This document shows positions 8,902 through 61,899 of a stretch of DNA of 64,000 nt, piece after piece. The notes under the pieces were generated by a model. The model made no database searches. It was not told the DNA's origin and worked only from the letters and a program-made list of their open reading frames with translations. Every line of letters starts with the position of its first letter. Position 1 is the stretch's first letter. Position numbers and translations under genes: made by a program. Origin of the DNA: an uncultured Christensenellaceae bacterium (GTDB taxonomy: Bacteria > Bacillota > Clostridia > Christensenellales > Borkfalkiaceae); NCBI GenBank assembly GCA_910587625.1, contig CAJUMW010000002.1, positions 86,002-150,001 on the forward strand. Reading direction: 5' to 3'.

Positions 8902-8911
8902 CAAATAAATT

Positions 8912-8942: not shown

Positions 8943-8949
8943 GTTTGAG

Positions 8950-9938: not shown

Positions 9939-9942
9939 ATTT

Positions 9943-16522: not shown

Positions 16523-16797
16523 AAAACCTCTAAATTATGTTGTTGAATAGTTTTGTTTTAAGCTATTTTACAACATATTTTTGCAAATGTCTTTAAGTAC
16601 AGAAAATTCTGTTACACAAAATACAAACTTATTAAAGCGATGATTATATCATATTCTTATTGTTTATATATAATTGTAGGTTTTTTTATAAAAATCGAGG
16701 GGAAACGGGTTTACTTATTTCTTATTTTATAGTACAATAATATTTGGCGGAAAATAAAAAACCGATTGACCGCAATAATTTTAAAAGGGTTTTAATT

Positions 16798-19700
16798 ATG
16801 GGACTTATCAAATTCATTTTCGGCGCAGATTCGAGAAGCGCGTTGAGAAAACTTAATAGACTTGCCGACAAGGTCGAAGAACTCGACCCCAAGTACTCGG
16901 CTATGGACGACGCCGAGCTTAAAAGCCAAACTCAAAAATTGAAGGACAGGCTTGCGGCAGGGGAAACGCTGGACGATATTATGTTCGACGCGTTTGCCGC
17001 GTTCAGGGAGGCAAGTTGGAGAGTTCTCGGAATGAAGCATTTCCACGTTCAGATTGTGGGCGGTATCTGCCTGCATCAGGGACGTATTGCCGAAATGAAG
17101 ACAGGTGAAGGTAAAACGCTTGTTTCTACCCTTCCCGCATATTTGAACGCACTAACGGGCAAGGGCGTGCACATTGTCACCGTCAACGACTACCTTGCTA
17201 AGCGCGACGCCGAGTGGATGGGTAAAGTTCACAAATTTATGGGGCTTACCGTCGGCGTAGTTGTGCCCGGTATGGACGACGCCGAAAAACAGAGGGCGTA
17301 CAAGTGCGACATTATTTACGCAACAAACAACGAGCTGGGCTTCGACTACCTTCGCGACAACCTCAAAACTTCGATATCCTCGATGGTTCAGCGCGAGCTT
17401 AACTACTGTATTATCGACGAGGTAGACTCGATTTTAATAGACGAAGCAAGAACGCCGCTTATCATTTCGGGCAAGGGCGGAGAAAGCTCGAAGCTCTACG
17501 AGGACGTGGATAAGTTTGTAAGAACGTTGAAGGGCGGTTTTGACGACGACAAAAAGGACGCCGAAAAGCACACTCCGTCAAAGAAGAAAAAGGAACTTTC
17601 CGACGAGGACAGGGCGGCTGAGGAAAAGCTGGCGGCAATTCTCGAAGAAATGGAGAATTGGGACTATATAATCGACAGAAAGGACAAGTCGGTAACTATT
17701 ACCGAAAAGGGCGCGGAAAAAGCCGAAAGGTTCTTCAATATCAAAAACCTCGGCGATATCGAAAACGCAGATTTGAACCACCACATTCAACAGGCGTTGA
17801 AGGCGCACGAGTTGTTCCACAACGGTGAGGAATACATTGTTTCGGGCGATGGGGAAATTTTGATAGTAGACGAGTTTACGGGCCGTGTTTTGAACGGCAG
17901 GCGCTATTCGGACGGACTTCATCAGGCAATCGAAGCCAAGGAAAAGGTCAAGGTCAAGGAAGAAAATAAAACTCACGCTACCGTTACTTTCCAAAACTAT
18001 TTCAGGTTGTATAAAAAGCTTGCGGGTATGACGGGTACGGCTATGACCGAGGAGGACGAGTTCAGAACTATCTATGCGCTCGACGTCGTTCCCATTCCCA
18101 CTAACAGACCCGTTCAGCGCGTCGATTACGCGGATATGATTTATTCCACGGTAGAGGGCAAAAAGCGCGCTATCGTAAACGAGGTTGTCGAGCGTCACGC
18201 AAAGGGACAGCCCATTCTTATCGGTACTATCACGGTCGAAAAGTCGGAAGAGATTTCAAGACTTTTGAGAAGAAACGGCGTAAAGCATAACATTCTGAAC
18301 GCAAAAAATCACGAGCGCGAAGCCGAAATAGTCGCGCAGGCAGGCAGGCTCAACCAATATGGCGGGGCGCGGCACCGATATTCTGCTTGGCGGCAACCCC
18401 GAGTATCTCGCTAAAAAGCGCATGAGGGAAGAGGGCTACGACCACGAAATGGTGGAAGTTGCTATCTCCTACGCCGACAGGGAGTTTACCGAGGAAGAGA
18501 AAACCGCCCGTGCAAGATATGCCGAGCTGTACGCCGCATATAAAAAGGAAACGGAAGCCGAAAAGCAGGAAGTTATCGCGGCAGGCGGACTTTGCATTTT
18601 AGGTACCGAGCGGCACGAGTCGCGCCGTATCGATAACCAGCTTCGAGGACGTGCGGGTCGTCAGGGTGACCCCGGCGCTTCGGTGTTCTTTATTTCGCTC
18701 GAGGACGACCTTGCAAAGAGGTTTGGCGGAGAGAGCATGAAGAGGCTGTATGCCACATTCAAGATTGACGAGGACACCTGTCTGCAATCGAAGATGCTTA
18801 CAAGAAGCATCGAGGGTGCGCAAAAAGCCATAGAGGGCAGAAACTTCGGTATCAGAAAGCACACGCTGCAATACGACGAGGTTATGAACGAGCAGCGTAA
18901 AACTATGTATGCCGAAAGGTTAAACGTTTTAAAGGGCGCCGACGTTCACGGACAAATGCTTAAATATATTCCCGACTATATAGCAAAGGTCGTCGGGGAA
19001 ACGGTAAATACCGACGCGTTGCCCGAAAAGTGGGACGAAAACGCGCTTAACGCCGCGCTTCAACAGAAGGTATATCCCGACGAGTGCAACTTTGTTATCA
19101 CCCGTGAAATGTTGGAAAAGTGGGACACCGAAACCGCTATGCAGAAAATTACCGAAGCGGTCATAGCCTCCTACGAGCAGAAAATTTACAATATCGGAGA
19201 GATGACAGACGGTCAGGTCGACTATCATCAGGTAGAGAGAAACGAGCTGTTGCGCAGCGTTGACAGAAACTGGATTGACCATATCGACGCTATGGACCAG
19301 CTCAGAAAGGGTATCGGGCTTCGCGGTTACGCCCAGCAAGACCCCGTAATTTCCTACAAGCAGGAAGGTTACGAAATGTTCGAAGAGATGATCGACCGCA
19401 TTCAGACCACTACAATTTCAAGGCTTTTAAAGGGCAGAATCGTGCGCATTCAGCAGCAGCCCCGTCAAAGACCCGACGTAAGGCGCGCGCCGCAGCCCCG
19501 ACAGGAGCAGGCAGGCGAACAGTCCGCGCCTCCCCGTCCTATGCCTCCGCAGCTTCCTCCCGAGCTTATCGAAAAGGCAAGGGAGCTTATGGCAAAGAGG
19601 TTGAAGGAACACGAGGAGGCTATGAAGCAACAGGCGCAGAACGCCGAAACCGAAGATAGCGGCAACGCCGAGCAGCAGAGTAAAGCTTCTAACGGCGGCC

Positions 19701-19870
19701 CCGTCATAGGTGACGCGCCCGAAGCGCCCACCGACCTTATGGCTAATATCGGCGGCAAACAGCTTCCCAAAGTTGCGCAAAAGAACACCAAGATAGGCAG
19801 AAACGACCCCTGCCCTTGCGGAAGCGGCAAGAAGTATAAGGACTGCTGTTATTGGAAAGACCACAAGTAA
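16798..19870 (+). pseudogene. secA: Preprotein translocase ATPase SecA, interrupted by a frameshift at about 18350 (assembly error or pseudogene)
   Basis: The ATG at 16798 gives MGLIKFIFG... [10 protein letters not shown] (Walker A) and [19 protein letters not shown] (DEAD-like) are present. ORF1 ends ..[11 protein letters not shown].. and ORF2 restarts at [14 protein letters not shown]-terminal zinc motif CPCGSGKKYKDCC. Confidence 0.9.
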
Positions 19871-33866: not shown

Positions 33867-35420
33867 TTACATCATATTAGCTTGTTTATAAAGCATATTC
33901 ATAAGTTCGTCAGAAACAAGGTCGCGTATTCTCGCATAGTAGATAAAGATGGAGGTAAAGAACTTTTCGTTTTTGCCGCCTACCGTGTAATCGGGAATGC
34001 AGGAAATAGGTCCGTTCTGACGTTCGAGGAATACTCTCGAAAACTCGACTTTCTGCTCGTTGGCAAGCGTGCGAATGAAGTCGTCGGTGGGTCCTTGGTA
34101 TATGATAGGTGTGTAAAGCCTTTCCGTATTTTCGACCGTGGGCGCCGCCTTTGTATCCGCAACGGGAACGACCCTTGCAGGCTGTTCCTCTGCGTGAGGC
34201 TTCTTTTTCTTTTCGGGTTTTTCCGTTTTTTCCGCCGTAGGTTTTGCGGTTTCTTTCGACTTTTTAGCTTTTTTCTTGCCTGCTGCCTTAGCCTTCTTTT
34301 TGTCGAGAAGGGCTACGCGGAACACGTTGATTACATGTGAGATAAGAGCAAGTATAGCCGCAATAATTACAAAGTTGCCAAGCGCCACGCCTTCCGCAAA
34401 GAAGGTGGTAACAACTATTACAATCAACGCCGCGACTTCGAGGGTGTATCTTATTATATTTACCACAAACATAAACTTGTTTGTCTTTTTGCCGAGACCC
34501 ATAAGGTCAAGCACAAGGTTTACAAACGCAAGATATCCGAATGTAACTGCCGCAAGCTCAAGTGTAATTACGGTAATTTCTCTGCCCTCGAATGCAAGCC
34601 CCGTCGTGAACAGAGAGTTTATAAGTCCGAGCACGTCTGCCGCCGTTTCCCCCGACGTGTAGAGCGTAAGGTTGAGTCCCGACGCAAAATCCGTGAGGAA
34701 GGGGAGCATAAACGGAATGCCGTAGATAAAAATTACTACGACTGCCGACATAAGCGCAAGCAAAAATTTTACTAAACCCGAGCCGCCCTTGTAGAAAATA
34801 GCCTGTACAATCAACATCAAAAGCGTGCCGCCGATTGCGGAGATAAGCCCGTAATTTGTAAAATCGGCTATTGTTTTGCCGTCGATAATAAATTGATTAA
34901 AAAGAATAATTACGAAGGTCGACAAAGTTGCTATCGCAAGCACTTCGATAAACGAGGCTGCTCTCAAAGCGACGTTTTTGTCCTTCTTGCTCTTTCTGTC
35001 CGCAGTTTCGTCAGTTGTTTCGGGGTCTGTTGAAGCGTCCTTGGACTTTTTCTTACCCTTTTTCCCGCTGAACGCGCTGACGCAGACGGGAATAAGAGCA
35101 ACTACTCCCGCAAGGGTAACAAGCGCGTAAAGTACTACGAGTATAGCGGCAAGATTAATTCCGCCCTCGGGCCAACCGGCAACGTTAAAGGGGAAATTGT
35201 AGGTAAAGTCGGGAGTACCGAACATACCCTGCAGACCTGTTTCCCCGATTTTCCAGATGCTGTCAAAAGCCGCCGGAATCTGTAATCCGAGCATAGAGTC
35301 AACCGGATTTGCAAAATCGGAGGGCAAAAACAGACCTAATAAAAGGCAGACAAGCGCGATAAAATATGTTATCAACGCAAAAATTTTATTGGGCTTTTTA
35401 GATTTCTTCTCGTTTCCCAT
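33867..35420 (-). CDS. Polytopic membrane protein with Lys-rich low-complexity linkers and a soluble C-terminal domain, function unknown
   Basis: 517 aa. Many hydrophobic helices. Linkers GKKGKKKSKDAS.. and KKKAKAAGKKKAKKSKETAKPTAEKTEKPEKKKKP. No family recognised. Confidence 0.7.
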   Translation of the reverse strand: MGNEKKSKKPNKIFALITYFIALVCLLLGLFLPSDFANPVDSMLGLQIPAAFDSIWKIGETGLQGMFGTPDFTYNFPFNVAGWPEGGINLAAILVVLYALVTLAGVVALIPVCVSAFSGKKGKKKSKDASTDPETTDETADRKSKKDKNVALRAASFIEVLAIATLSTFVIILFNQFIIDGKTIADFTNYGLISAIGGTLLMLIVQAIFYKGGSGLVKFLLALMSAVVVIFIYGIPFMLPFLTDFASGLNLTLYTSGETAADVLGLINSLFTTGLAFEGREITVITLELAAVTFGYLAFVNLVLDLMGLGKKTNKFMFVVNIIRYTLEVAALIVIVVTTFFAEGVALGNFVIIAAILALISHVINVFRVALLDKKKAKAAGKKKAKKSKETAKPTAEKTEKPEKKKKPHAEEQPARVVPVADTKAAPTVENTERLYTPIIYQGPTDDFIRTLANEQKVEFSRVFLERQNGPISCIPDYTVGGKNEKFFTSIFIYYARIRDLVSDELMNMLYKQANMM

Positions 35421-44536: not shown

Positions 44537-44565
44537 TTGCTATTTACACTATTATATGTTATAAT
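44537..44565 (+). promoter_or_regulatory. Sigma-A-type promoter candidate for the Hsp70/GTPase operon
   Basis: TTGCTA (44537-44542), 17 nt, TGtTATAAT extended -10 (44557-44565). Confidence 0.5.
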
Positions 44566-47353: not shown

Positions 47354-47384
47354 TCCGCCGACGCCCGTTTACGACGTCGGCGGA
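47354..47384 (+). other. Intercistronic GC-rich hairpin between the two Hsp70 genes
   Basis: TCCGCCGACG-cccgtttacga-CGTCGGCGGA, a 10-bp stem with no T-run after it. Confidence 0.5.
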
Positions 47385-49538: not shown

Positions 49539-52328
49539 ATGGCAGCGGTTAAAACGAGAACTGCAGAAGAATTAAAACAGTCTAAATATAATTATTTTAT
49601 CGTCCTCGATTTGAGCGTCAACGAAAAGAATCCTACTACAATACTGCAGGCACTTAAAAAGAAGTTTCCGGCCAATCAGGGTACGCCCAAAGACCCTTAC
49701 TTAGCTCGGCTTTTGGAGTTAAAGGGGGATATGGAGCAGGTACTTGTAAACGACGCAAGATATGACGACGCTTCCGGACAGTACGTTGCAAAGAGCGGAA
49801 TAAGAAAGGAAGAGGGAGATAGGGCTAAAAACTTTAAGCTTTCCGAAGTTATGACTATTGTTAGGGTCAAGTGCCAATCAAACGGCATAATGTACAAGAC
49901 CGAGCTTAGAAAGCTGTGCGTAGACGCAAACAAGAAAGCCGTGTTCTTCGAATTTGCCGAGCTTGAAAAAAAGTTTAAAGACGAAAAGCTCGATTCGGTC
50001 GTAAAATACATAGACAACGAAACCAACATCATAAATTTTATAGCGTTCGACGATATTTCCGATTTGTTGCAGGTTGAAGGCTTTGCCGACTTATACGCAT
50101 ATCTAGGACTGACAAACTCGGCAAGCTCGCAGCAGATTTTGTCGGAAGAAAAGAGAATTACAAACGAAAAGCTTGCAAACACGGGCGACAAGGAAAAAAA
50201 GAACCGCATAAACGCCTTTTCTGGCAACATTCAGACGATATTCAAGACGCCGGCATCGAGAAAGCAGTACGACGACTATCTGAAATCGCGTGAAAGCGTT
50301 TGGTCGCAGTTCAAAATTAGAAAGGCGTACAGCAAGGAAATTTCGCTGAACGAGTATATAGATTTCGTCGAAAAGCTTATGAAGGCTTTGAATATCCGCT
50401 TGGACGACGCGCAAACTATGCTCGGCGCAGGTTTAAAAAACTACGGCTTTATAGTCACGGGCGGCACAGCTAACGGAGCCGAAAAGAGCAAAATGGGTAT
50501 TACCGACCTGTCCTCTTGCCGTTTCTGCGGTTCGCTGTATAAAAAGGGCGCAAAAAGTTGCCCCAACTGCGGAAAATTGCTTGTTTCGGCGTGCTGGAAC
50601 TGCGGCGCTTCAATGGATTTGACAGTCACAAGCGTCTGCGGCAAGTGCGGAGCGAGCGAGGCGTTAAAAAAGAGCTTTGCGGCGGAAGTTATAAATTTGA
50701 ACAAGCTTTTTCAGTCGGGACAGTACAAGGAGTATGCGTTAAAGAGCGAGGCGTTCAAGCGCACTTATTCAAGCTTTAACCAGCCGCGTTCGCAGGTGGA
50801 AAGGGAGATGGCGGCAATAACCAAGACCTCCGACGACATTGTTTCGAAACAGCGCGAAAAGGAAACTACTTCAAAAAACTATCTTGCTAAAATAAACGCG
50901 GCAATAACTTCGAGAAAGTATTTCGAGGCGCAAAATCTTTTAAGGCAGTTAAAGCAGGTCGTTCCCGACGCAAACGTTAAGGCGGAAGAGAGCAGAATAA
51001 ACGCCGTCATTGCCGAGGTTCAGCAAATTTACAGGCAGATATGCGCGCTCGGCTCTGACGAGGCAAGAATTATACCCGAGTATATGCGTCTTTACGAAAA
51101 GTGCGTTGACTATTCCGAGGCGCAGTCGGTTATAAAAAAATTCCCGCCCAAACCTCCCGTCGAAGTTACCGTATCCGTGAGCGAAAGGGGCAATATAATA
51201 AAGTGGAACGTTCGTCCCGACGACACTATCACATACTCGGTAGTCAGAAAAATAGGCGCGGCGCCGAGAAGCGCAAGCGACGGAGATTTGCTTGTTTCGG
51301 GTCTGCGCGCGTTTACGTTTACCGACCTTAAAGCCGAAAACGTAGTACCTTATTTTTACGGCGTTTTTGCAACAAGGCTGGGTAGCGATTCTGCACTAAC
51401 CTGCACCAAAGCTTCTTGCCAAAGGTACGCAAACGTCACTATAAAGAGCAGTAAAGTGCTTGTTAACGGGCTCAAAGTAGAGTTTGCCTCTCTTTCGGGC
51501 GTAAGTAAAGTCATAGTTGTGCGCTCAAACGACGCTACGCCGCCCAAGAGCATTTCAAGCGGTACCAAAATTCCCGTAGACGAAAACGGGTTCACCGATT
51601 CTACTTTGCCCGGTTCGGGATTATACGGCTATTTCATTGTCTGTGAGTACATTGTAAACGGCAAACCCGTGTACTCGTCGGGAATATCCGAAACTTTCGA
51701 GTTCTACGAAAGACCGTCGTTTGTGGAAAACGTCAGGTTCAAAAAGGAAGAGGGCAACCTTTTTTGCGTAACTTTCAACGAGCTGGCTGTGGGTAAATTT
51801 GATATTTACGCTTCAAAGACGGCTGTCGTCGGCTTGAAATCCAACGAGTATTACAATATTTCAAAGCTAAACGGGCTTACGGATATCGAGTGTAAAAACG
51901 TAAAGCCCACTTCGGTAAACTTCGAGCTGCCGGGCAGGGGAGATTGGTTCTTCTACCCCGTGTGCGTGCAAAAGAGCGAGTTTACGGTGGGAGACGAGTA
52001 TATCTACCGCGATACCTCCCCCAAGTCGGCGGTGGTGCAGTATGAAGTTAAAGTAAATAAAAACAGCACTGTTTCCATCGATTTTGCCTGCGACCACCTT
52101 GTGGAGCTTGACGCTGTGAGGGTTGTGGGGACTGTCGGCAGACGGCCGAGAAACGTAAACGACGGAGAATGCGTGTCCGTGCTTGACGGAATAAAATTCA
52201 AAAAACCGCTGTTCTCCAAGGAGTACAAGGCAAGCATAAAAGTGTCCGTAGAGGGACGTAATCGCGGCAACGTTTACGCAGTATTTGCCGAAAACGACCA
52301 AGGAATAATATTTAAGAGGAAAGGATAA
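49539..52328 (+). CDS. 929-aa multidomain protein: J-like domain lacking HPD, double zinc ribbon, helical region, C-terminal beta-sandwich-like repeats
   Basis: The J-like stretch DLYAYLGLTNSASSQQI..KLANTGDKEKK..TPASRKQYDDYL (about 50088-50282) has ANT where HPD is expected. Four CxxC pairs (CRFC..CPNC..CWNC..CGKC) lie at 50517-50648. The beta-rich C-terminal half is Fn3/Ig-like by pattern only. Confidence 0.7.
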   Translation: MAAVKTRTAEELKQSKYNYFIVLDLSVNEKNPTTILQALKKKFPANQGTPKDPYLARLLELKGDMEQVLVNDARYDDASGQYVAKSGIRKEEGDRAKNFKLSEVMTIVRVKCQSNGIMYKTELRKLCVDANKKAVFFEFAELEKKFKDEKLDSVVKYIDNETNIINFIAFDDISDLLQVEGFADLYAYLGLTNSASSQQILSEEKRITNEKLANTGDKEKKNRINAFSGNIQTIFKTPASRKQYDDYLKSRESVWSQFKIRKAYSKEISLNEYIDFVEKLMKALNIRLDDAQTMLGAGLKNYGFIVTGGTANGAEKSKMGITDLSSCRFCGSLYKKGAKSCPNCGKLLVSACWNCGASMDLTVTSVCGKCGASEALKKSFAAEVINLNKLFQSGQYKEYALKSEAFKRTYSSFNQPRSQVEREMAAITKTSDDIVSKQREKETTSKNYLAKINAAITSRKYFEAQNLLRQLKQVVPDANVKAEESRINAVIAEVQQIYRQICALGSDEARIIPEYMRLYEKCVDYSEAQSVIKKFPPKPPVEVTVSVSERGNIIKWNVRPDDTITYSVVRKIGAAPRSASDGDLLVSGLRAFTFTDLKAENVVPYFYGVFATRLGSDSALTCTKASCQRYANVTIKSSKVLVNGLKVEFASLSGVSKVIVVRSNDATPPKSISSGTKIPVDENGFTDSTLPGSGLYGYFIVCEYIVNGKPVYSSGISETFEFYERPSFVENVRFKKEEGNLFCVTFNELAVGKFDIYASKTAVVGLKSNEYYNISKLNGLTDIECKNVKPTSVNFELPGRGDWFFYPVCVQKSEFTVGDEYIYRDTSPKSAVVQYEVKVNKNSTVSIDFACDHLVELDAVRVVGTVGRRPRNVNDGECVSVLDGIKFKKPLFSKEYKASIKVSVEGRNRGNVYAVFAENDQGIIFKRKG

Positions 52329-52329
52329 A

Positions 52330-53448
52330 ATGTCGGGAAAAATTATTTGCCCCTATTGCTATACCGAACAAAAACTTAAACTTATGAAAAAAATTTGCAT
52401 AAGCGACGGTTGCGAGGAAAACACAAAAAACACAAAGTTTTCCGCAAAGGAGAGCAACTGCCCCAAATGCGGCAGCAACCTGCGCTATGCCTGCACTAAT
52501 CCCAAGTGCGGACACTCTATTGAAAAGGACGAGTTGGAGTGCAAAGACCCCCTGCCCATAGCTATTATCGGGGCAAGGTATTCGGGCAAATCCAACTATA
52601 TAGCCGTTGCCGTGCACGAGTTGCAGGTTAAGGGCAACAGATTCGGAATAGGTATCAGAGCCAACGCCGCGACGGCTTCCGTGTATTCACAGGAATACGA
52701 AGCGCCGGTTTTCAAGCGTCAGGTTCCAATTACCACCACGCGCGCCGCAACAAAGAAAAATAAGCGCGAGCCGCTTATATTTATGCTTACCACGGGACTG
52801 AATAAGGGTAAGCGCGGAACATTTCCGCTGTCATTCTATGATACCGCAGGGGAAAATATGGAAAAGAGCGACCTCGATACCGAGGAGTACGTCGGATATA
52901 TCTCCTATGCAAAGGGGCTTATCATACTTATGGACCCGTGGCAGATACCTTACGTCAAAGACAGGCTCGGCGGCATAATTCCGCCCGAGGCAAAGAACGC
53001 CATAGGTTTAAGTCCCTACGAAATTTTGGAGCGAGCTATTCGCGTCATACGCAGTCAGACCAAAATGAAGGTCAATGACAAAATCAAAATACCCATTGCA
53101 ATTGCGTTCAGTAAAATAGACTCGCTTGAAAGCGGCGGACTTTTGGAGGACGGCAGTTGCCTTACGCGCCCGTCGTCGCACATAGACGAGGGCAAGTATT
53201 CAAAGCTCGAACACGACGACACCAACAGCGACATAATGAGTATGCTTCAATACTTCGACGAGGAAGAGGCGGAAAGGTTTTTGAACCTTACTCGCAACAA
53301 TTTCGAGACATATTCGTTTTTCGGGTTTTCGTCGTTCGGCTGCGGACTTACGGGCGGCAAGCTCAGTCAAAAGGTCAAACCGAGAAGGGTGCTCGACCCG
53401 TTCCTTTGGCTGCTTAGCATAAACAAACGTATTCAGACTACAAAATAA
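52330..53448 (+). CDS. Zinc-ribbon plus small-GTPase-like P-loop protein (soluble paralogue)
   Basis: It starts 1 nt after the upstream stop. CPYC..C..C..CPKCG..CTNPKCGH. Walker A/G1 GARYSGKS (52570-52593), G3-like FYDTAGE, G4-like FSKID. C-terminal LDPFLWLL motif. Confidence 0.75.
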   Translation: MSGKIICPYCYTEQKLKLMKKICISDGCEENTKNTKFSAKESNCPKCGSNLRYACTNPKCGHSIEKDELECKDPLPIAIIGARYSGKSNYIAVAVHELQVKGNRFGIGIRANAATASVYSQEYEAPVFKRQVPITTTRAATKKNKREPLIFMLTTGLNKGKRGTFPLSFYDTAGENMEKSDLDTEEYVGYISYAKGLIILMDPWQIPYVKDRLGGIIPPEAKNAIGLSPYEILERAIRVIRSQTKMKVNDKIKIPIAIAFSKIDSLESGGLLEDGSCLTRPSSHIDEGKYSKLEHDDTNSDIMSMLQYFDEEEAERFLNLTRNNFETYSFFGFSSFGCGLTGGKLSQKVKPRRVLDPFLWLLSINKRIQTTK

Positions 53449-53462
53449 GGGGAATTGAAAAA

Positions 53463-56183
53463 ATGAGATATAAACAGTTGATTTATACGTCTTACAAAAA
53501 ATACAACTCGGACGTAACGGGTGAATCAAGCGGTTACGACGTGTTTGCGATGACGCCCGGTATAAGCGAAGAAGAGCGCGACGAGCTTATTGCAATGTTC
53601 ACAAACTATGCCGTTCCCAACGACCCGAGGTTGAACGATTTGGAAAATATCGAAAAGAACGTCGAGCTGTACGCGCCCAAACAGCGCGCATACCTCAAGC
53701 TGTCCACGGGCAGGTACTGCTGGTGTCAGGTTTCGCTTATGCCCTACGATTTCAGCGGACGTTACAACAGCATTTACTTTCACGCCGTATTATCGGATGA
53801 AGAGCCCGATTTTGCTCCCGTCGACTTTTTCGAAAACTTTACCTTTAAAACAAAGCTCACCGACGACGAGTTTCACGCGCGCGTTACGCCGCCCGAGCTC
53901 AGGGAGGAAAACATCGACGGCAAGCTTATGCAGAGGGCAAGGCAGACGGTTAAGTTCGAGCGCGCGGTTTTAACTAAAATTCTCAACTCTGTTTTATATT
54001 GCGTAAGAGAAAATAAGCCTCTGTTTTTAAATTGCAAGACGGAAGAGGCTTACGACGCAATAAAATCCGTGCTCGCATTTTTGCCCGTTTCGCTTGCAAA
54101 AGCCGCTTATTTTTCCACATACTCCTCCGACGAACAGGAGGACGGGCGCGCGTTCAGAATTTGCCATATGGGCGATGAATTCGGCTATTCAAACAGGCTT
54201 TCAAACACCTATGTAGCCGTTGCCGATTTAATTGAAAATAAATTTTCCGAACACATTCCCGACGACGCGTTTATTGCAAGGCTTGTCGAGTATGCGTACA
54301 CGAACGCGGCTAATTTGGACAGGTTAAAAGCGTTTTACGAAAATTATACGAAAGGCTCGCTCGGCTTTTCGTCGGAGGCGCTTGTCAACGCATACGACTT
54401 TATGTACACCGAAGCATACGAGCAGTTTGATTTGCACACTTTCAAATCGGTAATATCGGACGCGTACATAACTACCGTGCCCCAAAATGCGAGGGCGTCG
54501 AGAATAAAAGAATATCTTGCCGCAAATATGCCGGATGTGCGGGAGCGCGGCGTACTGCTCAATGAAATTTATAAGCTTACGGCAGATAAGCGAATTCTTA
54601 CCGACTACACAAGCGAGCTTTTGAAAATGGTTGTAGACGTCGAGCTTAAAACCGACGAAGCTGCGGAAATTTTAAAGAGCGTTTTCGGCTGCGATTTAAG
54701 AATGGTTGTTTTAGCCGAACTTGACACATACACAAATCTTTTGTCGTCAAACATCTCTGAAACCGCGGTGTTCGAGCTGGTTGTCGGATTGCTTTTGAGT
54801 GCGGAAAAGGTGGACAGAGCAAAGGCTGACGAGCTGTATTCGTTGCTCTTCAACGGAATTTCGGCTAAGGGTGACTTGAATTTGTTGACGGGCATGCTTT
54901 TGCCGAGCTTAAAAAATAGCGCATATTTCAACGTGTGCGTTAAAAAGATTTTTTCAAGCTACTGTAAAAATGCCGAGCACGCGGCATATTGGCTTGATTT
55001 CTGCATTAATTGTGCCGACGAAACTATACGCGACGTATTTTTAAACCTTACGCTCGAGTACGTCGGCAGCGACGAGCTTTTGCGTGTAGTCGCTGTCAAC
55101 CCTCAGATATGCAATCACATTCTGGCTCTGCTTAAAAAAATCGACCAAAAGAACCTTTGTAAGGACGCAATTTTCAATATTATTTGCAAGCTGCTTCGCG
55201 CGGCGCTTGCCGTATCTCCCGTTGCGGATACTGCGGTAAATATTATTAAATTTTACGACGTTTTGAAGTATGAACGCATAGGGGAGTTGTACGACATAAC
55301 TTACGAAGTTTTACAGGGCAACATTTCAAACGTGTTTATCAAACTTGCCGAGCAGTACGGAGACGATTATGTAAGCGCAATTGCGCGCGGTAAGTGGAGT
55401 AATTTTGCCGAAAATATTCTTATTTCGAGCATTCGTACCGACGAGGACGTAATTTCGAGATATATAAAGAAGTATTATGTAAAGGGCAACTTCCGCGAGT
55501 GTTACGACGGAATTATGTCGGCAATCGAGTTTGGGGACGACACCCGGCAGTGGTTGTTCTACGGCAGGCTTTTAAACGAAGTAAAGGGACTGCACGATAA
55601 CGCTTTAACTAAGGTATATACCTTGCTAAACGCCAAACTTTTCGATATTTCTCACAGTGACAGAAAGGCTGTTGCAAAGGTAATTTCGGACATTTGCGCT
55701 ATATCCGACATACGCGTTTCAAAGGAAATAGAACTTGTTTCGAGACTTATTAACTTTGACGGAAAATATAAGACGGCTGTTGAACTTGAGGACTTTATTT
55801 TAGCAGTTTGCTCAAACGATGATAAGGTCGGTTCGGGAGTGTTCGCCTACTACTATGACGTACTTTTGGGCGTTTCGCTTGTAATTGTCAAAAAGAAAAA
55901 GCCGTCAAAGCTTTTGTCGCTCATCTACGCAAGCGGCTTGGAAGACGAGTATATTGCAAAGCTTTGGGACGTCTATTTTAAAAAGGACAAAAAAGCGCAG
56001 ATTATGTATATGCTCGAGCTTATGCGCGAGGATATAAGCTGTGCGGACAGTGATTACAAAAACAGTCTTTTAAAATATTTTTACGGACATTCCGACGAGA
56101 AGTTTATAGCTAAGTTCAATAAATTGCTGTCAAAAAGCAAGAACGATAAATTTGCGGCTTCGGCGGAAAAATATAAAAATTGA
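53463..56183 (+). CDS. 906-aa predominantly helical protein, function unknown (possible GTPase-associated partner)
   Basis: Good SD (AAGGGGA). The N-terminus is MRYKQLIYTSY....GYDVFAMTPGIS.. followed by ..YDFSGRYNSIYFHAVL. The rest is a helix-rich repeat-like sequence. No catalytic motif seen. Confidence 0.7.
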   Translation: MRYKQLIYTSYKKYNSDVTGESSGYDVFAMTPGISEEERDELIAMFTNYAVPNDPRLNDLENIEKNVELYAPKQRAYLKLSTGRYCWCQVSLMPYDFSGRYNSIYFHAVLSDEEPDFAPVDFFENFTFKTKLTDDEFHARVTPPELREENIDGKLMQRARQTVKFERAVLTKILNSVLYCVRENKPLFLNCKTEEAYDAIKSVLAFLPVSLAKAAYFSTYSSDEQEDGRAFRICHMGDEFGYSNRLSNTYVAVADLIENKFSEHIPDDAFIARLVEYAYTNAANLDRLKAFYENYTKGSLGFSSEALVNAYDFMYTEAYEQFDLHTFKSVISDAYITTVPQNARASRIKEYLAANMPDVRERGVLLNEIYKLTADKRILTDYTSELLKMVVDVELKTDEAAEILKSVFGCDLRMVVLAELDTYTNLLSSNISETAVFELVVGLLLSAEKVDRAKADELYSLLFNGISAKGDLNLLTGMLLPSLKNSAYFNVCVKKIFSSYCKNAEHAAYWLDFCINCADETIRDVFLNLTLEYVGSDELLRVVAVNPQICNHILALLKKIDQKNLCKDAIFNIICKLLRAALAVSPVADTAVNIIKFYDVLKYERIGELYDITYEVLQGNISNVFIKLAEQYGDDYVSAIARGKWSNFAENILISSIRTDEDVISRYIKKYYVKGNFRECYDGIMSAIEFGDDTRQWLFYGRLLNEVKGLHDNALTKVYTLLNAKLFDISHSDRKAVAKVISDICAISDIRVSKEIELVSRLINFDGKYKTAVELEDFILAVCSNDDKVGSGVFAYYYDVLLGVSLVIVKKKKPSKLLSLIYASGLEDEYIAKLWDVYFKKDKKAQIMYMLELMREDISCADSDYKNSLLKYFYGHSDEKFIAKFNKLLSKSKNDKFAASAEKYKN

Positions 56184-56340
56184 TCCTGCTTCTATAATTG
56201 CTGTTCCGATTTTGGTGATAAGTGCGTGTATTGCACTATTATGCAACCGTAAATTTTTTGCCGCAGGCTTTATTTTCGGGCTTATTATATATTGCCTGTG
56301 TCGCTTGAAAAAATTCGCGGTATTATCTCTTACGGCGTGA
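56152..56340 (+). CDS. Doubtful small two-TM ORF in the only long intergenic gap of the operon
   Basis: 62 codons with a TTG start, no SD and no in-frame ATG. Two hydrophobic stretches (IIAVPILVISACIALL, AAGFIFGLIIYCLC). It overlaps the upstream gene by 32 nt. Confidence 0.2.
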   Translation: MRLRRKNIKIDPASIIAVPILVISACIALLCNRKFFAAGFIFGLIIYCLCRLKKFAVLSLTA

Positions 56341-56367
56341 GAAAATATTGGAAAAATTGAGGTAACT

Positions 56368-57315
56368 ATGGGTTATTTAATTGGTTTTGGTATCATACTC
56401 GGTATAATAGCCGGTATTTGTTACGGAATATACACGTTATGCGTAATTATCTGGAATATGCAGGTATGCTATCACGGCAGTATGGACGCTATGTTCAGTG
56501 TCACGCTGATTATTGTCGTTTTGTTGGCTGCTTTGGTTGTAGTTTGTTTAATTGTTGCGGCATTGTTTGAATTGGACGGATTGAAAACCGTTGTATTGCG
56601 CATTATGTTGCCCGCAGCGATAGGCTTTTTGGCTCTTTCGGGCATAGTTTATATTTACGGCTATTGCGAACCTGTATTTTTGGGTGTTGACGCATTAAGT
56701 GACCCTGCGTATAACAATTATTTTTTGAATACAGAACGGGATATAATGGTCAATGATTTGAGTCCGTTTACTACAATTCAGGCTTGGGTCATATTGATAA
56801 GCGGAACTTTGCTTTTCATTGCCGCAGCATTTTCGATTATAGCGGCGCTGATATCGTCCGTCCGTTACGGAGATATATATCTCGGCAGTGCATTCAGTGT
56901 GTTGTTTAAATGCTTATACCGCATATTTTTACCTGTTTTAATTCTTGTTGCGGTGCTCGTAGGCTGGTACTATTTAACCACTATCGTTCTTTGGGACTAT
57001 GATTTATTCGATTTGATTATTCACGGCATAGCAACCTCGGGCGCGCTGCTCGGAGCGGTAGTCGGGTTTGCTTTTCTTGTAAACAGACAGCCGCTTGCCG
57101 CCGCCTTTTCACTCGGGCTTGCCGCGGCTGTGGCATTTGTAAGCTACACCGTGTTCGGCGCAAAGATACTGCTTGATTTGATGAGCGAGTATTATCTGTT
57201 TATAATTTTAGGTTTCATAGGGTTATACTTATTGCTCGGCGTTGTTTACTGTCTTACAAGAATTAAAGTAATAAGAAATATCATAAGACGTGCAAAATAT
57301 ATGTATTGGTTATAA
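56368..57315 (+). CDS. Polytopic membrane protein (about 8 TM), function unknown
   Basis: 315 aa, almost entirely hydrophobic helices. SD TGAGGT upstream. Confidence 0.75.
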   Translation: MGYLIGFGIILGIIAGICYGIYTLCVIIWNMQVCYHGSMDAMFSVTLIIVVLLAALVVVCLIVAALFELDGLKTVVLRIMLPAAIGFLALSGIVYIYGYCEPVFLGVDALSDPAYNNYFLNTERDIMVNDLSPFTTIQAWVILISGTLLFIAAAFSIIAALISSVRYGDIYLGSAFSVLFKCLYRIFLPVLILVAVLVGWYYLTTIVLWDYDLFDLIIHGIATSGALLGAVVGFAFLVNRQPLAAAFSLGLAAAVAFVSYTVFGAKILLDLMSEYYLFIILGFIGLYLLLGVVYCLTRIKVIRNIIRRAKYMYWL

Positions 57316-57330
57316 TTATTCGGAGAAAAT

Positions 57331-58731
57331 ATGAAAAAACAAAGATTGGAAGAACCTGCAAGGACTAAACTGTTTTGGATTCCCATTTACAACATTCTTT
57401 TTTATACCGTCAAAGAAATTCTTTTGGACGTATGGGATTTGGCGTCGACTGTCGGCAATAAATTTTTCCGCCTGCTCTGGGTGGTAGTGTTTCCCTTTCT
57501 TCTGGTAATTTATCCGGCTACCTGTCTTGTACTGCTGCTGGTAATTATAGTTTTACTTTTTGTTACGCTGGTTAACTATATTTTCGGCGGCGTCAGCTAT
57601 GTGGTGGACAGCTTGTATTTAAAAATTCACGGAATAGGGCTTGTGTGTCCCGCGTGCAACAACAAGTATCAGTTGCCGACATACATATGTCCAAGATGTA
57701 ACGCCCAACATAAGAACCTGCGCCCCGGCAGGTACGGCATTGCAAAGCGCACCTGTAAGTGCGGCGCAAAGCTGCCCACAACGTTCTTTAACGGCAGGCA
57801 GCATCTTGACGCCATATGCCCTAACCCGGCTTGCCGCTATGCTTTCAAATCGAAGATACTGCCGGCACGCCCCATATGTATTCCCATTATCGGCGGCGTA
57901 TCCTCGGGTAAAACAAGCCTTATAAACGCAGGTATAGACGGGCTGAATAAATATTGCCAAATCCCCGACAATAAAATGGAGTTCGAGTATTGCTCGAACG
58001 AGGACGAGCAGAGGCACAAGAGAAACCTTGAAATTTTAAAGACGAGGAACACCGACAAGACTCATAAACAGCAGTTCGACTCGTACAAGTTCTATTTCTC
58101 TCCTCAGGGCGCAAAGGTAAAGAACAGGGTTTACGTCTATGACGTTGCCGGAGAGGTCTACGACGCCAAAAAGCAGAATATTGTTGAAAAGACGCAGGTT
58201 TTCGACTTTACAAACAGCTTGCTGTTCGTATTGGACCCTCTGTCTATCGACGATTTTTACGACGACTGCGTTCAGGCAAAGGTGCCCAATCTCGAAAGAT
58301 ACAAGCGTTCGGACAGAAGTATGAACGACGTTGTTACAAATATGATAAACAGCCTCGGCGTGTTTGCAAGTCTTACGCCCGAAAGGTGTAAAAAGGTGTT
58401 TGTAGCGATAGTTATTACAAAGGGCGACTTGCCGCTAATTAAAGACCAAATCGGTGACGAGTACGTCGCAGAGCTTGCAAGGCAGAACAGAACGACATGG
58501 AATAGGGCTAAAAATATTGCCTGCGAGCAGTTCCTTGACAAGTATCAGGCTATGAACTTTCTCAACATAATAAGGAATAAGTTTGAAAATTATCAGTTTT
58601 TCACAACCAGCTCGTGGAGCGGAGAACAGAACAAGTACGTTGCGGAAAATGCCGAGGACCCGTTCCTTTGGCTGATTGATATGGAAAGTCCCGAAATTGA
58701 CCTTAAAACAAAGTGGAACAGCAATAAATAG
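57331..58731 (+). CDS. Membrane-anchored zinc-ribbon plus small-GTPase-like P-loop protein (paralogue of 52330-53448)
   Basis: Two N-terminal TM helices. CPACN..CPRCN..CKCG..CPNPAC. G1 GGVSSGKT (57892-57915), G3-like VYDVAGE, G4-like ITKGD. C-terminal EDPFLWLI motif shared with the soluble paralogue. Confidence 0.75.
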   Translation: MKKQRLEEPARTKLFWIPIYNILFYTVKEILLDVWDLASTVGNKFFRLLWVVVFPFLLVIYPATCLVLLLVIIVLLFVTLVNYIFGGVSYVVDSLYLKIHGIGLVCPACNNKYQLPTYICPRCNAQHKNLRPGRYGIAKRTCKCGAKLPTTFFNGRQHLDAICPNPACRYAFKSKILPARPICIPIIGGVSSGKTSLINAGIDGLNKYCQIPDNKMEFEYCSNEDEQRHKRNLEILKTRNTDKTHKQQFDSYKFYFSPQGAKVKNRVYVYDVAGEVYDAKKQNIVEKTQVFDFTNSLLFVLDPLSIDDFYDDCVQAKVPNLERYKRSDRSMNDVVTNMINSLGVFASLTPERCKKVFVAIVITKGDLPLIKDQIGDEYVAELARQNRTTWNRAKNIACEQFLDKYQAMNFLNIIRNKFENYQFFTTSSWSGEQNKYVAENAEDPFLWLIDMESPEIDLKTKWNSNK

Positions 58732-58744: not shown

Positions 58745-59335
58745 ATGGGTTCGACTTATTCGGCGGTGTGCCCGGGGTGCGGCGGCAGCCCAAAACCCGG
58801 TACAAACATATGCGAGTTTTGCGGAAAAGAGCTGTTTATAACTACTTTCAATCCGCTTTTCAATATGAATTTTCCCGACGTAAACAAGTATATGAGGTCT
58901 TATTCCTCGGGCGGATTCGGAGAAACCGACGAGCAAAAGGCAAAGCGGCTTATGGCGCTTGGGCTATGTCAATTAAAATTAAAACTCTACGATAAGGCGG
59001 CGCAGAGCTTCGAAGAGGTAGTAAATATCGCGTACGACTGTGCTGAGGCATATTACTGTGCGGCGTTGTGCGTGTTCAAGGGCAACAGACCCTTTCTTTC
59101 AAACATTAAAAGCGTCGAAAGGGCGGAACAGCTTTTAAGTGCCGCACTGTCCGTAAGCAGAAAGGGAATATATTATCTGTTTGCCGCTTTTATAAAAAAG
59201 GACTTTTACGAGCGTAAGTTTTATAAGACGAGCCCGAGCAGCAGGGACTATAAGGCCGAAGCAGATAAATTGGGCGTGCCGCAGGGAGATAAAACTTCGC
59301 TCGAGCAGCTTTTAAACACAAGAATAGATATTTAA
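58745..59335 (+). CDS. Zinc-ribbon protein with TPR-like helical repeats
   Basis: The ATG at 58745 is preceded by AGGAGG. CPGCG..CEFCG lies at 58769-58822. Helical hairpins follow: ALGLCQLKLKLYDKAAQSFEEVV..AEAYYCAALCVFKG. Confidence 0.65.
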   Translation: MGSTYSAVCPGCGGSPKPGTNICEFCGKELFITTFNPLFNMNFPDVNKYMRSYSSGGFGETDEQKAKRLMALGLCQLKLKLYDKAAQSFEEVVNIAYDCAEAYYCAALCVFKGNRPFLSNIKSVERAEQLLSAALSVSRKGIYYLFAAFIKKDFYERKFYKTSPSSRDYKAEADKLGVPQGDKTSLEQLLNTRIDI

Positions 59336-59345
59336 GGAGTAGAAT

Positions 59346-60377
59346 ATGACGCTTTATTCGGTTATAAAAAACCAAAGTCCGTTGCCCTGCCTTTTATGGA
59401 AACACCCGGGTGAGGACTTCAATAACAACTCGCAGCTTACCGTATCCGAGTCGGAGGTGGCGCTGTTTTATAAAGAGGGAGTAATAGTTCAGGAGTACAC
59501 GGGCGGCAGGTATACGCTCAACACCAATAACGTTCCCTTTATAAGGCGCATAATTTCGAAGTTTTCAGGCGGTGTTTCGGCGTTCAACTGCGCAGTATAT
59601 TTTATAAGCAAGACGCATGCAATGGACGTGAAGTGGGGAACTCAATCTCCCATTCCCATGCGCGACGCACAGTACGGGTTTGCCGTCGGCGTGCGCGCGA
59701 GGGGGTCTTATACCGTTCAGGTAAAGGACGCAAAGAAATTTCTTTTAAAGATGCTCGGCACAAATATGACGACGTATTCGGTGGAGGAGTTAAACAGTTG
59801 TTTCAGAACGGCGTTCCAGCAAAAGATAAAGGTCGAAGTTGCGACCGTTATGAAAAACCTTAAAATGACTATTCTCGATATGGCTACGGAATACGAGAAT
59901 ATCGCAAACAAACTTCACCCCGTTATAAACGGCTTGTTGGATGAATACGGGCTTCGCTGTGTAAACTTTTATGTTTCGGATATTTCCATACCGCAGGACG
60001 ACCCCAACTATCAAAAGATAAACGAGGCGTATGCGCGCGTCGGTTCGAGAAATATCGAGGGAATAACCTGGCAGCAGGACACACAGGCAAACATCTTGCG
60101 CGATATGGCTAACAATCAGGGCTTCGGAGGAATGGGCGCAGGTATGGGTATGGGCTTTGCCGCCGGAAATATTTTCGGCAGTATGGCTAACGGCGCTTTC
60201 TCGCAGCAGGCTCCTCAACAGCAGGGCGCAAAGTGCCCGTCGTGCGGAACGGATAATGCAAAGTCGGCAAAATTCTGTTCCAACTGCGGCAAACCGCTTG
60301 CGGCTGTCTGCCCCAATTGCGGCGCTTCTTTGACGTCGGGCGTAAAATTCTGCTCGAACTGCGGATTTAAAGTGTAG
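59346..60377 (+). CDS. SPFH/band-7-like protein with Gly/Met-rich linker and C-terminal double zinc ribbon (B. subtilis YdjI / COG4260-like)
   Basis: N-terminus LLWKHP.EDF...SQL.V.ESE.A.F.K.G. followed by a beta/alpha SPFH-like core. Linker GFGGMGAGMGMGFAAGNIFG. CPSCG..CSNCG..CPNCG..CSNCG at 60234-60362. Confidence 0.78.
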   Translation: MTLYSVIKNQSPLPCLLWKHPGEDFNNNSQLTVSESEVALFYKEGVIVQEYTGGRYTLNTNNVPFIRRIISKFSGGVSAFNCAVYFISKTHAMDVKWGTQSPIPMRDAQYGFAVGVRARGSYTVQVKDAKKFLLKMLGTNMTTYSVEELNSCFRTAFQQKIKVEVATVMKNLKMTILDMATEYENIANKLHPVINGLLDEYGLRCVNFYVSDISIPQDDPNYQKINEAYARVGSRNIEGITWQQDTQANILRDMANNQGFGGMGAGMGMGFAAGNIFGSMANGAFSQQAPQQQGAKCPSCGTDNAKSAKFCSNCGKPLAAVCPNCGASLTSGVKFCSNCGFKV

Positions 60378-60387
60378 AGGTGTACAT

Positions 60388-61068
60388 ATGAAACTGCTTC
60401 CCAAAATAATTATATACGTCTTGTTTTTAGTTGCGTATTCTCTGCTTGTATTTCTTCTCAACGCCGATTATACCGTCGTGTTCGGTCTGGCATACGCGTT
60501 TGCGGCGCTTGCCGTGCTGGTGCAATTTACCTGCACGATACTCGTCGATAAAAAGATTAAGGCTGAATTTTTGACCTATCATCTGGTCTTTGTATTGCTG
60601 TCGTACACGGTTATCAACCTTATTGCAAATACCCTTTGCGCGTTTTTCCACAGGGAGATTACCTATCTTGTACCGTTGCTTGTAAACGTGTGCCTGCTTG
60701 CAGGTTATACAATTTACTTTATAATTCATTTCAACAGCGTTAAAGCCATTGAAAGCAACGTCAAAGAGGAGCGCGCTCGCTTGCAGTTTGTAAGGGTTGC
60801 GGCGCAAAAGCTCGAACTGATAATGAGTTCCCTTACGGATATTTCCGTTAGCAAAAAAGTGGAAATACTTTACGACGCAGTGAGGGGCAGTCAGGCGCTC
60901 GGCAACGAGGGCGTTGCCGCCCTCGAGCTTGAAATTTTGTCCGACATAGATATGCTGCAAATTTTATATGACGACGATAATTTCGAGGGTGCGGACAGAC
61001 TTTCGCAGAGCATTTTGACAAAATTAAACAGGCGCAACGCATATATAACTTCTTCACAGGTGGTGTAA
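60388..61068 (+). CDS. 4-TM membrane protein with cytoplasmic helical tail, function unknown
   Basis: 226 aa. SD GAGGTG. Four hydrophobic helices, then a helical segment of about 100 aa. Confidence 0.7.
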   Translation: MKLLPKIIIYVLFLVAYSLLVFLLNADYTVVFGLAYAFAALAVLVQFTCTILVDKKIKAEFLTYHLVFVLLSYTVINLIANTLCAFFHREITYLVPLLVNVCLLAGYTIYFIIHFNSVKAIESNVKEERARLQFVRVAAQKLELIMSSLTDISVSKKVEILYDAVRGSQALGNEGVAALELEILSDIDMLQILYDDDNFEGADRLSQSILTKLNRRNAYITSSQVV

Positions 61069-61851
61069 ATGAGGCTTTTAAAAATACTTACCGCGTTGTT
61101 TGTGCCCTTTCCCGATATTACGGGGCAAGAGTTTAAAAGCATGTTCAATTTCAAAATGTGGGGCAAAGCCAATTTGCATAGGTTGTCCGTTTACGAACAG
61201 AACAGACTGTTTTTTACCTCGGGCGCGTCTAAAATCAACTACGTTGCAATGCTTGTTTGGCTGCTTATCGGCGTCGCGCTGGTAACTTCGGGCTTAATTT
61301 TTGCAATAGTTTTGGGCGTTTTGCTTGTCGTATCGGTTCTGAGCCTGCTTGTTATGAGGATAATGTCGATACCTAAAATTACAAGGTTGGATGTGGAAAA
61401 TAATATTCAAATAATAGTCGGCGGAATCGAGCAGGAGGGGTTGAATGCAAACGGAATAGATGCGTCTCAGGTGAATATAGCAGGCGATCCGCTCTGCCTT
61501 ATGCAGTACATAGACGAGGATATTGCAGACCGTCACTACGTCAAGGACAAAATGAGCTCGAACATTTCGGTCACATATTTCTACGTCGGTATAGACCAAT
61601 TTTTTATATATAAAGTGAGGTGTTCGCTCATCTGCGAGTTTGAAAAAGTCTGTGAGTCGTACGATTATTTTTACAGAGATATTATGAGCTCGAATATAAG
61701 AACGGACGCTTCCCGTCCGAATTGCTATATGCTCGAACTTGTGTTTTTAAACAGCCGAACGGTAAGTTTTGAGTTCAGCGGCGGACCCGAAGTGCAGCAG
61801 ACTTTGTTTGCAATCAAAAATTTAATAAGAGATAAGAGAAATACCATATAA
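61069..61851 (+). CDS. Membrane-anchored protein (2 TM plus a C-terminal soluble domain), function unknown
   Basis: The ATG directly abuts the upstream stop (TAAATG). Hydrophobic hairpin MLVWLLIGVALVTSGLIFAIVLGVLLVVSVLSLLVM. Confidence 0.65.
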   Translation: MRLLKILTALFVPFPDITGQEFKSMFNFKMWGKANLHRLSVYEQNRLFFTSGASKINYVAMLVWLLIGVALVTSGLIFAIVLGVLLVVSVLSLLVMRIMSIPKITRLDVENNIQIIVGGIEQEGLNANGIDASQVNIAGDPLCLMQYIDEDIADRHYVKDKMSSNISVTYFYVGIDQFFIYKVRCSLICEFEKVCESYDYFYRDIMSSNIRTDASRPNCYMLELVFLNSRTVSFEFSGGPEVQQTLFAIKNLIRDKRNTI

Positions 61852-61852
61852 T

Positions 61853-61889
61853 AAAACTGCCGCAAAGCTTTAAACTTTGCGGCAGTTTT
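61853..61889. terminator. Bidirectional intrinsic terminator closing the Hsp70/GTPase operon
   Basis: AAAACTGCCGCAAAG-ctttaaa-CTTTGCGGCAGTTTT followed by ATT. Confidence 0.8.
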
Positions 61890-61899
61890 ATTATATAAA

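Follow-up and report, generated by a model that had tools for sequence, protein, structure and literature searches.

The 64,000-nucleotide stretch analyzed here (the window) is part of contig CAJUMW010000002.1, from an uncultured Christensenellaceae bacterium. Between 44.5 and 61.9 kb, it contains twelve closely packed open reading frames (ORFs) on the + strand, which form a single run. Two of them encode the proteins studied here, A and B, which are paralogues and predicted GTPases. The run is located directly after the housekeeping cluster yqfD-phoH-era-recO; a hairpin follows recO, and the promoter-like site listed in Table 1 lies between this hairpin and the GrpE-like gene. At the other end of the run lies one long palindromic hairpin, for which 20 pairs were listed (G-T pairs allowed), 7 of them G-C; judged from its sequence, it is likely a bidirectional terminator that closes the operon.

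Table 1. Features of the gene run and motifs of A and B, with positions in the window (aa, amino acids)
Feature	Position	Strand	Basis
Promoter-like site TTGCTA-17-TATAAT with extended TG	44537..44565	+	consensus match only
GrpE-like nucleotide-exchange factor, 352 aa	44578..45636	+	Pfam GrpE in orthologues
Hsp70 nucleotide-binding-domain protein, no recognisable substrate-binding domain, 552 aa	45670..47328	+	Pfam HSP70
Hsp70 with C-terminal vWA fusion, 692 aa	47422..49500	+	Pfam HSP70 and VWA
929-aa protein, J-like domain, double zinc ribbon and helical linker	49539..52328	+	Pfam DZR, family profile
DO-GTPase A, soluble, 372 aa	52330..53448	+	Pfam PF19993, motifs, AlphaFold
A, two zinc ribbons	52348-52509
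A, G1/P-loop IIGARYSGKS	52564-52593
A, G3 FYDTAGE	52834-52854
A, G4 AFSKID	53104-53121
A, β6/G5 FFGFSS	53317-53334
A, C-terminal helix motif DPFLWL	53395-53412
GAP1, GAP1-N2 type, 906 aa	53463..56183	+	Pfam GAP1-N2
Polytopic membrane protein, 315 aa, about eight hydrophobic segments, variable component	56368..57315	+	hydropathy
DO-GTPase B, membrane-anchored (predicted), 466 aa	57331..58731	+	Pfam PF19993, motifs, AlphaFold
B, two zinc ribbons	57646-57834
B, G1/P-loop IIGGVSSGKT	57886-57915
B, G3 VYDVAGE	58135-58155
B, G4 VITKGD	58411-58428
B, β6/G5 FFTTSS	58597-58614
B, DPFLWL	58657-58674
Four tightly packed downstream genes, SPFH/zinc-ribbon module	58745..61851	+	Pfam, locus comparison
Long palindromic hairpin flanked by A/T runs, between convergent genes	61848..61894	.	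stem listing

Motifs, fold and family of A and B

An earlier note, made from the letters of the window, had described A and B as paralogous zinc-ribbon proteins of the same architecture, with Ras-like motifs and a shared C-terminal DPFLWL. All the motifs of that note were found where it had placed them. The ribbon cysteines that it listed are in place as well, including CPYC (aa 7–10) and CPKC (aa 44–47) of A; those of B follow the order CPAC, CPRC, CKC and then CPNPAC. However, one further pair of A, C23 and C28, had been missed. As this pair completes the first ribbon, A and B each possess two full four-Cys ribbons. Pairwise alignment by BLASTP gave 23% identity across nearly the full length of the two proteins (E=2e-15), and profile–profile alignment of the two orthologue families by hhalign gave a probability of 99.9% with an E-value of 2.9e-32. 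Both alignments bear out the common architecture and the paralogy.

Invariant columns were taken from alignments of 30 sequences, one for each family. Of the eight zinc-ribbon cysteines, seven are listed as invariant in the A family and all eight in the B family. Both families share the P-loop GxxxxGK[ST]; the D..GE of Walker B/G3, in which the Glu (E175 in A and E275 in B) is invariant; the DP that ends the following strand; the K and D of the [ST]KxD G4 motif; the FF..S strand/G5 segment; and the D-P..W-L pattern of the last helix. The motifs picked out from the single sequences are thus the invariant columns of each family.

Hydropathy analysis found no hydrophobic segment in A. B contains a single hydrophobic stretch (aa 41–93; 57451-57609) with room for two transmembrane (TM) helices. 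The proposal of two N-terminal TM helices in B therefore holds as far as the length of the stretch is concerned; the AlphaFold model draws one long helix instead (residues 44–99), preceded by a helix at residues 16–40 that we read as amphipathic. At the extreme N-terminus of the B family, before the membrane hairpin, P9 and A10 are invariant and Phe15 is nearly so. They belong to a short motif with the consensus QPA..NYFF, located at 57355-57375 (aa 9–15) in the window.

The AlphaFold models of A (pLDDT 87, pTM 0.88) and B (pLDDT 84) contain a G domain of ∼290 residues, with insertions after β4 and around α4 and with Glu in place of the catalytic Gln of Ras. In the secondary-structure order of both models, the FF(G/T)xSS segment forms strand β6 together with the G5 motif, and DPFLWL is located at the start of the last helix. 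Judged by its position, we take this helix to be α5 of the G domain; DPFLWL is therefore most likely a structural signature of the family rather than a docking peptide.

In Pfam, both proteins match PF19993 (DO-GTPase2, 'Double-GTPase 2'), with 27.3 bits for A and 35.4 bits for B at a gathering cut-off of 27. The orthologues of A, including one database entry that is 100% identical, are annotated with the same family. Searches of large databases returned 596 homologues of A, typically about 370 aa in length, and 346 homologues of B, typically 460–500 aa with a hydrophobic N-terminal region; nearly all of these ∼940 proteins, the exact protein of the window included, were already annotated as PF19993. 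An exhaustive profile search with the A family reached 4,689 clusters (50% identity) at E≤0.001 and 2,960 at E≤1e-10. The Pfam Ras, Arf, Rab and Roc models match neither A nor B.

Sequence searches of the PDB with the A and B family profiles found no solved relative, so the folds had to be compared directly. Against the PDB, Foldseek matched the A model to Hbs1/eEF1A, EF2/Snu114, Arl13B, atlastin, GBP1, MglA, Gs-alpha and YcjX, and the B model to Gs-alpha, Arl6/3/13B, Rac, Ras, Rab, MglA and eEFSec; for B, coverage of small-GTPase targets reached 0.67. Without exception, the significant matches of both models are GTPases. Might the P-loop domains nevertheless belong to a non-GTPase family of ATPases, with Ras-like motifs by coincidence? 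The G4 motifs of the window read SKID and TKGD, different from the canonical NKxD, the Foldseek TM-scores normalized by query length are low (about 0.3), and the lack of a solved structure detectable by sequence would be compatible with that idea. Yet the K and D of G4 are invariant in both families, whose consensus is TKxD, an accepted G4 variant. PF19993, a GTPase family, is the sole Pfam match, no ATPase family came up for either P-loop domain in the Pfam and profile assignment, and the structural matches point the same way. We regard the ATPase alternative as extremely improbable. Taken together, the Pfam family, the GTPase-only structural matches and the invariant guanine-specificity motif [ST]KxD uphold the assignment to Ras-like TRAFAC GTPases that had been made from the motifs; on the evidence of the models, A and B are TRAFAC-fold GTPases with predicted nucleotide binding.

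The narrower label 'small GTPase' stands only in part. A and B share the core fold and the G1–G5 order of the Ras superfamily and MglA, and the best structural matches of B include MglA, Arl, Rac, Ras and Rab. Different from these proteins, A and B carry zinc-ribbon and TM extensions and large insertions, show no Pfam match to Ras, Arf, Rab or MglA, and have Glu instead of the catalytic Gln. Their partner is also different: it is GAP1 for A and B, versus MglB or classical GTPase-activating proteins and exchange factors (GAPs/GEFs) for the Ras superfamily and MglA.

GAP1, the membrane protein and the chaperone module

The gene encoding the 906-aa protein starts 14 nucleotides (nt) past the end of A. 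The protein matches Pfam PF20013 (GAP1-N2) with 51 bits (cut-off 24), GAP1-M with 18.5 bits, which is below the cut-off of 24, and has no Pfam match to GAP1-C; no effector domain is recognisable in it. At other loci where a single-sequence search had missed GAP1, Pfam GAP1-N2 was detected in 9 of 10 ORFs between A and B. GAP1-M is over the cut-off in four of ten ORFs from other loci, and a fifth one scores 23.4.

For the 315-aa polytopic membrane protein encoded between GAP1 and B, no match to any family came up in Pfam (permissive E-values included), PADLOC or NCBIfam. At permissive E-values, Pfam also assigned no domain to the other membrane proteins or to a 260-aa protein. In L067, the closest relative, which is 74% identical, the position between GAP1 and B (6198-8964) is occupied by three polytopic membrane genes, two of which encode proteins 36–40% identical to the 315-aa protein of the window. 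The 315-aa protein is the fastest-evolving part of the locus, and it varies in copy number.

Upstream of A, the run encodes what looks like one dedicated Hsp70 machinery. The GrpE-like protein of the window scores 21.9 bits with Pfam GrpE, under the cut-off of 25.8; however, 14 of 16 syntenic orthologues match the model, with a best E-value of 9.4e-11. When the PDB was searched with the family profile, GrpE did not come up, and the assignment is drawn from the Pfam matches of the orthologues rather than from that search. The 552-aa Hsp70 matches Pfam HSP70 with E=2.8e-82, at profile positions 2–373 only, which correspond to the nucleotide-binding domain. The 692-aa protein matches both HSP70 (E=1.4e-97) and VWA (E=5.6e-19), and its sequence contains a DTSGS motif of the MIDAS type. 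The two Hsp70 genes are separated by a 93-nt gap, which holds one GC-rich hairpin (47354-47384) with a 12-bp stem; it is not followed by a T-run on the + strand, and it may serve in processing, stability or partial termination and so set the ratio of expression within the operon.

The 929-aa protein contains a double zinc ribbon (Pfam DZR, aa 327–371). Its family profile matches J domains in the PDB with E=5e-6 at profile positions 180–246 (about nt 50076-50276); this J-like domain was detected by the family profile only, and Pfam at a permissive E-value assigned no fn3, DnaJ or other domain to the N- and C-terminal parts of the window protein. The same profile reached one Fn3-like protein in the PDB only at E=0.01, and one of 18 orthologues gave an fn3 match (E=0.007). 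From its sequence, the C-terminal part is presumed to be β-rich and to consist of FNIII repeats.

Conservation of the locus across genomes

The locus was compared with its relatives by a scan of one genome per species, which gave 66 loci; they were annotated with the A and B profiles and the proteins of the window. One of them, L001, is 99% identical to the window. The gene order GrpE-like, Hsp70, (Hsp70-vWA), 929-aa homologue, A, GAP1 and B is kept. Among the loci with at least 8 kb upstream of A, Hsp70 is present in 42 of 44; among those extending 6 kb or more downstream of A, a B-type gene is present in 51 of 53, so that A and B do co-occur across genomes. None of the 124 ORFs was ambiguous between the A and B profiles, and the two proteins thus form separate orthologous groups. 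The pairwise distances of A and B in 48 loci are tightly correlated (Mantel r=0.92, with none of 2000 permutations as high), though co-inheritance alone could give such a correlation. As far as sequence comparison goes, the trio of A, GAP1 and B is inherited as one unit with the GrpE-like protein, the two Hsp70s and the J-like/zinc-ribbon/β-rich protein.

The components diverge at different rates. Between the window and L067, the GTPases are 72–74% identical, GAP1 47% and the membrane proteins 36–40%. The system is also found in distant hosts: in a Fermentimonas metagenome-assembled genome (MAG) of the Bacteroidota (L035), A is 79% and B 68–70% identical to Firmicutes proteins, and in a Bifidobacterium jacchi isolate (L030) the values are 63% and 61%; the Firmicutes compared were Faecousia, Ruminococcus and Acetatifactor. 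Mis-binning is possible for the MAG, but not for the isolate. These identities indicate that the whole system was recently transferred across phyla.

Several loci depart from the common layout. L007, L010, L011, L013, L016, L025 and L042 contain two or three B-type genes together with a single A-type gene; the extra copies are in tandem, or spread around the locus in L011 and L025. L068 (1-11398) has the A-GAP1-N2-...-B trio without Hsp70 or GrpE genes; two genes for VirD4/TraG-like coupling proteins lie upstream of the trio, and one transglutaminase-core protein and membrane proteins separate GAP1 from B. In Kitasatospora (L055, 11324-15442), one 1373-aa ORF carries a C-terminal DO-GTPase2 domain (aa 1067–1304) behind about 1000 aa with no assigned domain; here, in an actinobacterium, the B-type GTPase takes the form of a fusion.

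Downstream of B, the run continues with four genes that are probably co-transcribed with the DO-GTPase core. The first, with a zinc ribbon and TPR, begins at the ATG at 58745. It is followed by a protein with SPFH/Band_7_1 and two zinc ribbons (59346-60377). Next come a membrane protein that has several hydrophobic segments (60388-61068) and a protein whose single long hydrophobic stretch has room for two TM helices (61069-61851). The combination of SPFH/Band_7_1 with a zinc-ribbon domain is also found in the ydjFGHL (pspA) operon of B. subtilis. Only L001 and L067 have the four-gene module beside the DO-GTPase core. Relatives of the SPFH/zinc-ribbon protein were located in 80 metagenome loci; none of the 80 has a DO-GTPase nearby, and 5 keep the following membrane gene. 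The SPFH/zinc-ribbon genes were therefore rejected as part of the system, since 64 of the 65 other DO-GTPase loci lack them and their relatives occur without DO-GTPases. On these comparisons, we treat the four genes as a separate module that adjoins the conserved DO-GTPase system.

Some features elsewhere in the window are recorded here. The secA gene is broken into two ORFs that overlap and differ in frame (16744-18414 and 18359-19870), and one P-type heavy-metal ATPase is split likewise (9907-10989 and 10809-12263); both are probably assembly frameshift errors or pseudogenes. A stretch rich in GGGG/CCCC is located at 18364-18400. The start of the window (81-1139) encodes a protein with a REase_MTES_1575 endonuclease domain. 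Three large ORFs of 664, 802 and 517 aa (4313-8901, 33867-35420) have no Pfam match at E≤1e-5.

Identity of the system and its possible function

DO-GTPase/GAP1 GTPase-centric systems have a computational definition, given by Kaur, Burroughs, Iyer and Aravind (eLife 2020, PMC7159879). DO-GTPases are present as two paralogous copies in 38% of the systems, hence the name 'double-GTPases'; in 60%, the N-terminus carries a zinc ribbon or two, and in 13% it carries TM segments. GAP1, of type N1 or N2, is encoded downstream of the GTPase gene, and the N2 systems contain a protein whose FNIII repeats evolve rapidly. The HSP70/GrpE theme makes up about 14% of the N2 neighbourhoods and was reported for Actinobacteria and Firmicutes. 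It consists of HSP70, GrpE and sometimes a second HSP70 without the peptide-binding domain, and the FNIII protein is fused to DnaJ (PMC7159879).

Like the window, the DO-GTPase/GAP1-N2 systems in this description have two TRAFAC paralogues that carry DxxGE and a pair of N-terminal zinc ribbons, with one paralogue membrane-anchored, a GAP1-N2 protein encoded after the first GTPase, and a Firmicute host. The HSP70 theme likewise contains one HSP70, a second HSP70 that lacks the peptide-binding domain, GrpE and a large variable J-domain protein. The Pfam identifiers of these systems are PF19993, PF20013 and PF20014. The earlier note had mentioned 'double-GTPase conflict systems' without being able to place the pair among them; owing to the point-by-point fit with the published system, that label proves to be the right one. 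A and B are almost certainly the DO-GTPase components of one GAP1-N2-type GTPase-centric system of the HSP70/GrpE theme. There is nothing out of the ordinary in the pair, whose family and system are already in Pfam and in the literature.

Compared to PMC7159879, the differences are all minor. The N-terminal anchor of B consists of two helices, and a C-terminal TM segment is missing, whereas the published form has four N-terminal segments and one C-terminal segment, an arrangement given as 'usual' and not as defining. In the window, one separate polytopic membrane gene lies between GAP1 and B, the J-like domain lacks HPD, the FNIII repeats are faint, and the SPFH/zinc-ribbon module is appended. 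The Hsp70-vWA fusion is not mentioned in the available part of the paper, and the trio of L068 with its coupling-protein genes may represent a theme beyond those described there.

A cooperating or heterodimeric DO-GTPase pair at the membrane is itself a prediction of PMC7159879, and the following scheme builds on it. Soluble A would pair in a GTP-dependent manner with membrane-bound B, through the G domains and/or GAP1, and at the membrane's inner face their association would work as a switch with a threshold. GAP1 would link this switch to the fast-evolving 929-aa protein, the presumed sensor, whose J-like domain would recruit the dedicated Hsp70, Hsp70-vWA and GrpE-like machinery; the output would be the assembly or remodelling of a protein complex. 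Paralogous or identical TRAFAC GTPases that use nucleotide-dependent pairing as a switch, often with one partner at the membrane, are exemplified by SRP54/FtsY, the Rag heterodimers and atlastin/GBP, and both atlastin and GBP1 are among the structural matches of the A model. However, A and B have no sequence-level relationship to these proteins and lack NG, Roadblock and helical-bundle domains; different from those pairs, the A–B dimer interface is entirely hypothetical. In its logic, the scheme also resembles the MoxR-vWA 'ternary' conflict systems (PMC7159879), which likewise combine one NTPase switch, one peptide-binding vWA domain and a constant third scaffold protein, are tied to fast-evolving non-enzymatic modules and have a predicted thresholded activation logic. 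They differ in using an AAA+ ATPase instead of a GTPase pair, and the core components are not homologous.

Alternatively, A and B may not be heterodimeric at all; they may act in separate steps or as homodimers, bridged only indirectly by GAP1, with A serving for example the sensor/Hsp70 module and B the membrane proteins. That just 38% of the published systems are two-copy means that one GTPase can suffice (PMC7159879). Some loci have one A-type gene with two or three B-type genes, and the A and B genes are separated by GAP1 and, in the window, by one membrane-protein gene too. Against these points, the pair is nearly obligatory in the HSP70-theme clade, and A and B diverge in close step, with the reservation given above for such correlations. 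We consider the alternative unlikely, and give the heterodimer switch an even chance.

As for the biological role, DO-GTPase systems were predicted in 2020 to be bacterial systems of the immune (conflict) type (PMC7159879), and defence against invaders would accordingly be the predicted role here. Several observations weigh against this interpretation or against the identification beneath it. The score of A is just 0.3 bits over the PF19993 cut-off. None of A, B, GAP1 and the 929-aa protein has a model in NCBIfam or PADLOC, and the models of experimentally catalogued anti-phage systems in PADLOC-DB v2 gave zero matches for them. The gene cluster has no recognisable toxin-like effector domain. 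A defence-island or mobile-element context was rejected, as the flanks are housekeeping genes. Literature searches for experiments with DO-GTPase or GAP1 systems turned up none on any member; apart from the 2020 paper, they yielded a single passing mention. The FNIII repeats of the 929-aa protein are barely detectable, and the window protein itself has no Pfam fn3 match even at a permissive E-value. Finally, its J-like domain lacks HPD in the window and in the orthologues, where variable residues such as TGD or KSD are found instead. The HPD tripeptide is required for canonical Hsp70 stimulation, and its absence from these sequences suggests that contact with the two dedicated Hsp70s is of a non-canonical kind.

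In the main rival reading, the same parts could serve other biology, in one membrane-proximal proteostasis or envelope-stress system that is not immune; there, the GTPase pair and GAP1 would direct the Hsp70/J/GrpE set to assemble or repair membrane-associated complexes. A full dedicated chaperone cycle would suit this role, as would the missing toxin-type effector and PADLOC match, the housekeeping neighbourhood on the chromosome, and an operon that runs on into the SPFH/Band_7_1 and zinc-ribbon protein and then into membrane proteins. However, the SPFH module is independent elsewhere. Distribution is patchy, with transfer across phyla, B-type paralogues are added at several loci, and evolution is fast in GAP1, in the 929-aa protein and in the membrane proteins, as expected of conflict systems; the transfer, the extra paralogues and the fast-evolving accessory parts count for the conflict role. 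We hold the proteostasis alternative to be rather unlikely, though less so than the absence of heterodimers, and regard the immune role itself as evenly balanced. With identity, switch mechanism and defence role taken together, the conflict-system interpretation is the best overall explanation, and we lean towards it.

One more speculative idea is that the DO-GTPase systems are not anti-phage systems of the classical type but machines for membrane-integrity surveillance and repair, with an Hsp70 cycle that is non-canonical. It is raised because, in this Christensenellales lineage, expanding polytopic membrane paralogues and the SPFH module are probably co-transcribed with the core and HPD is lost; we think it quite improbable.

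The locus leaves the existing predictions unchanged and is not to be pursued as a discovery; its remaining interest is low to moderate and stems only from the lack of experimental characterisation of the whole class. DO-GTPase/GAP1 systems are widespread and unite a GTPase pair with dedicated Hsp70 or tubulin machinery. The locus described here is a clean, compact and apparently single-operon example from a gut member of the Christensenellales, and it could guide experiments.

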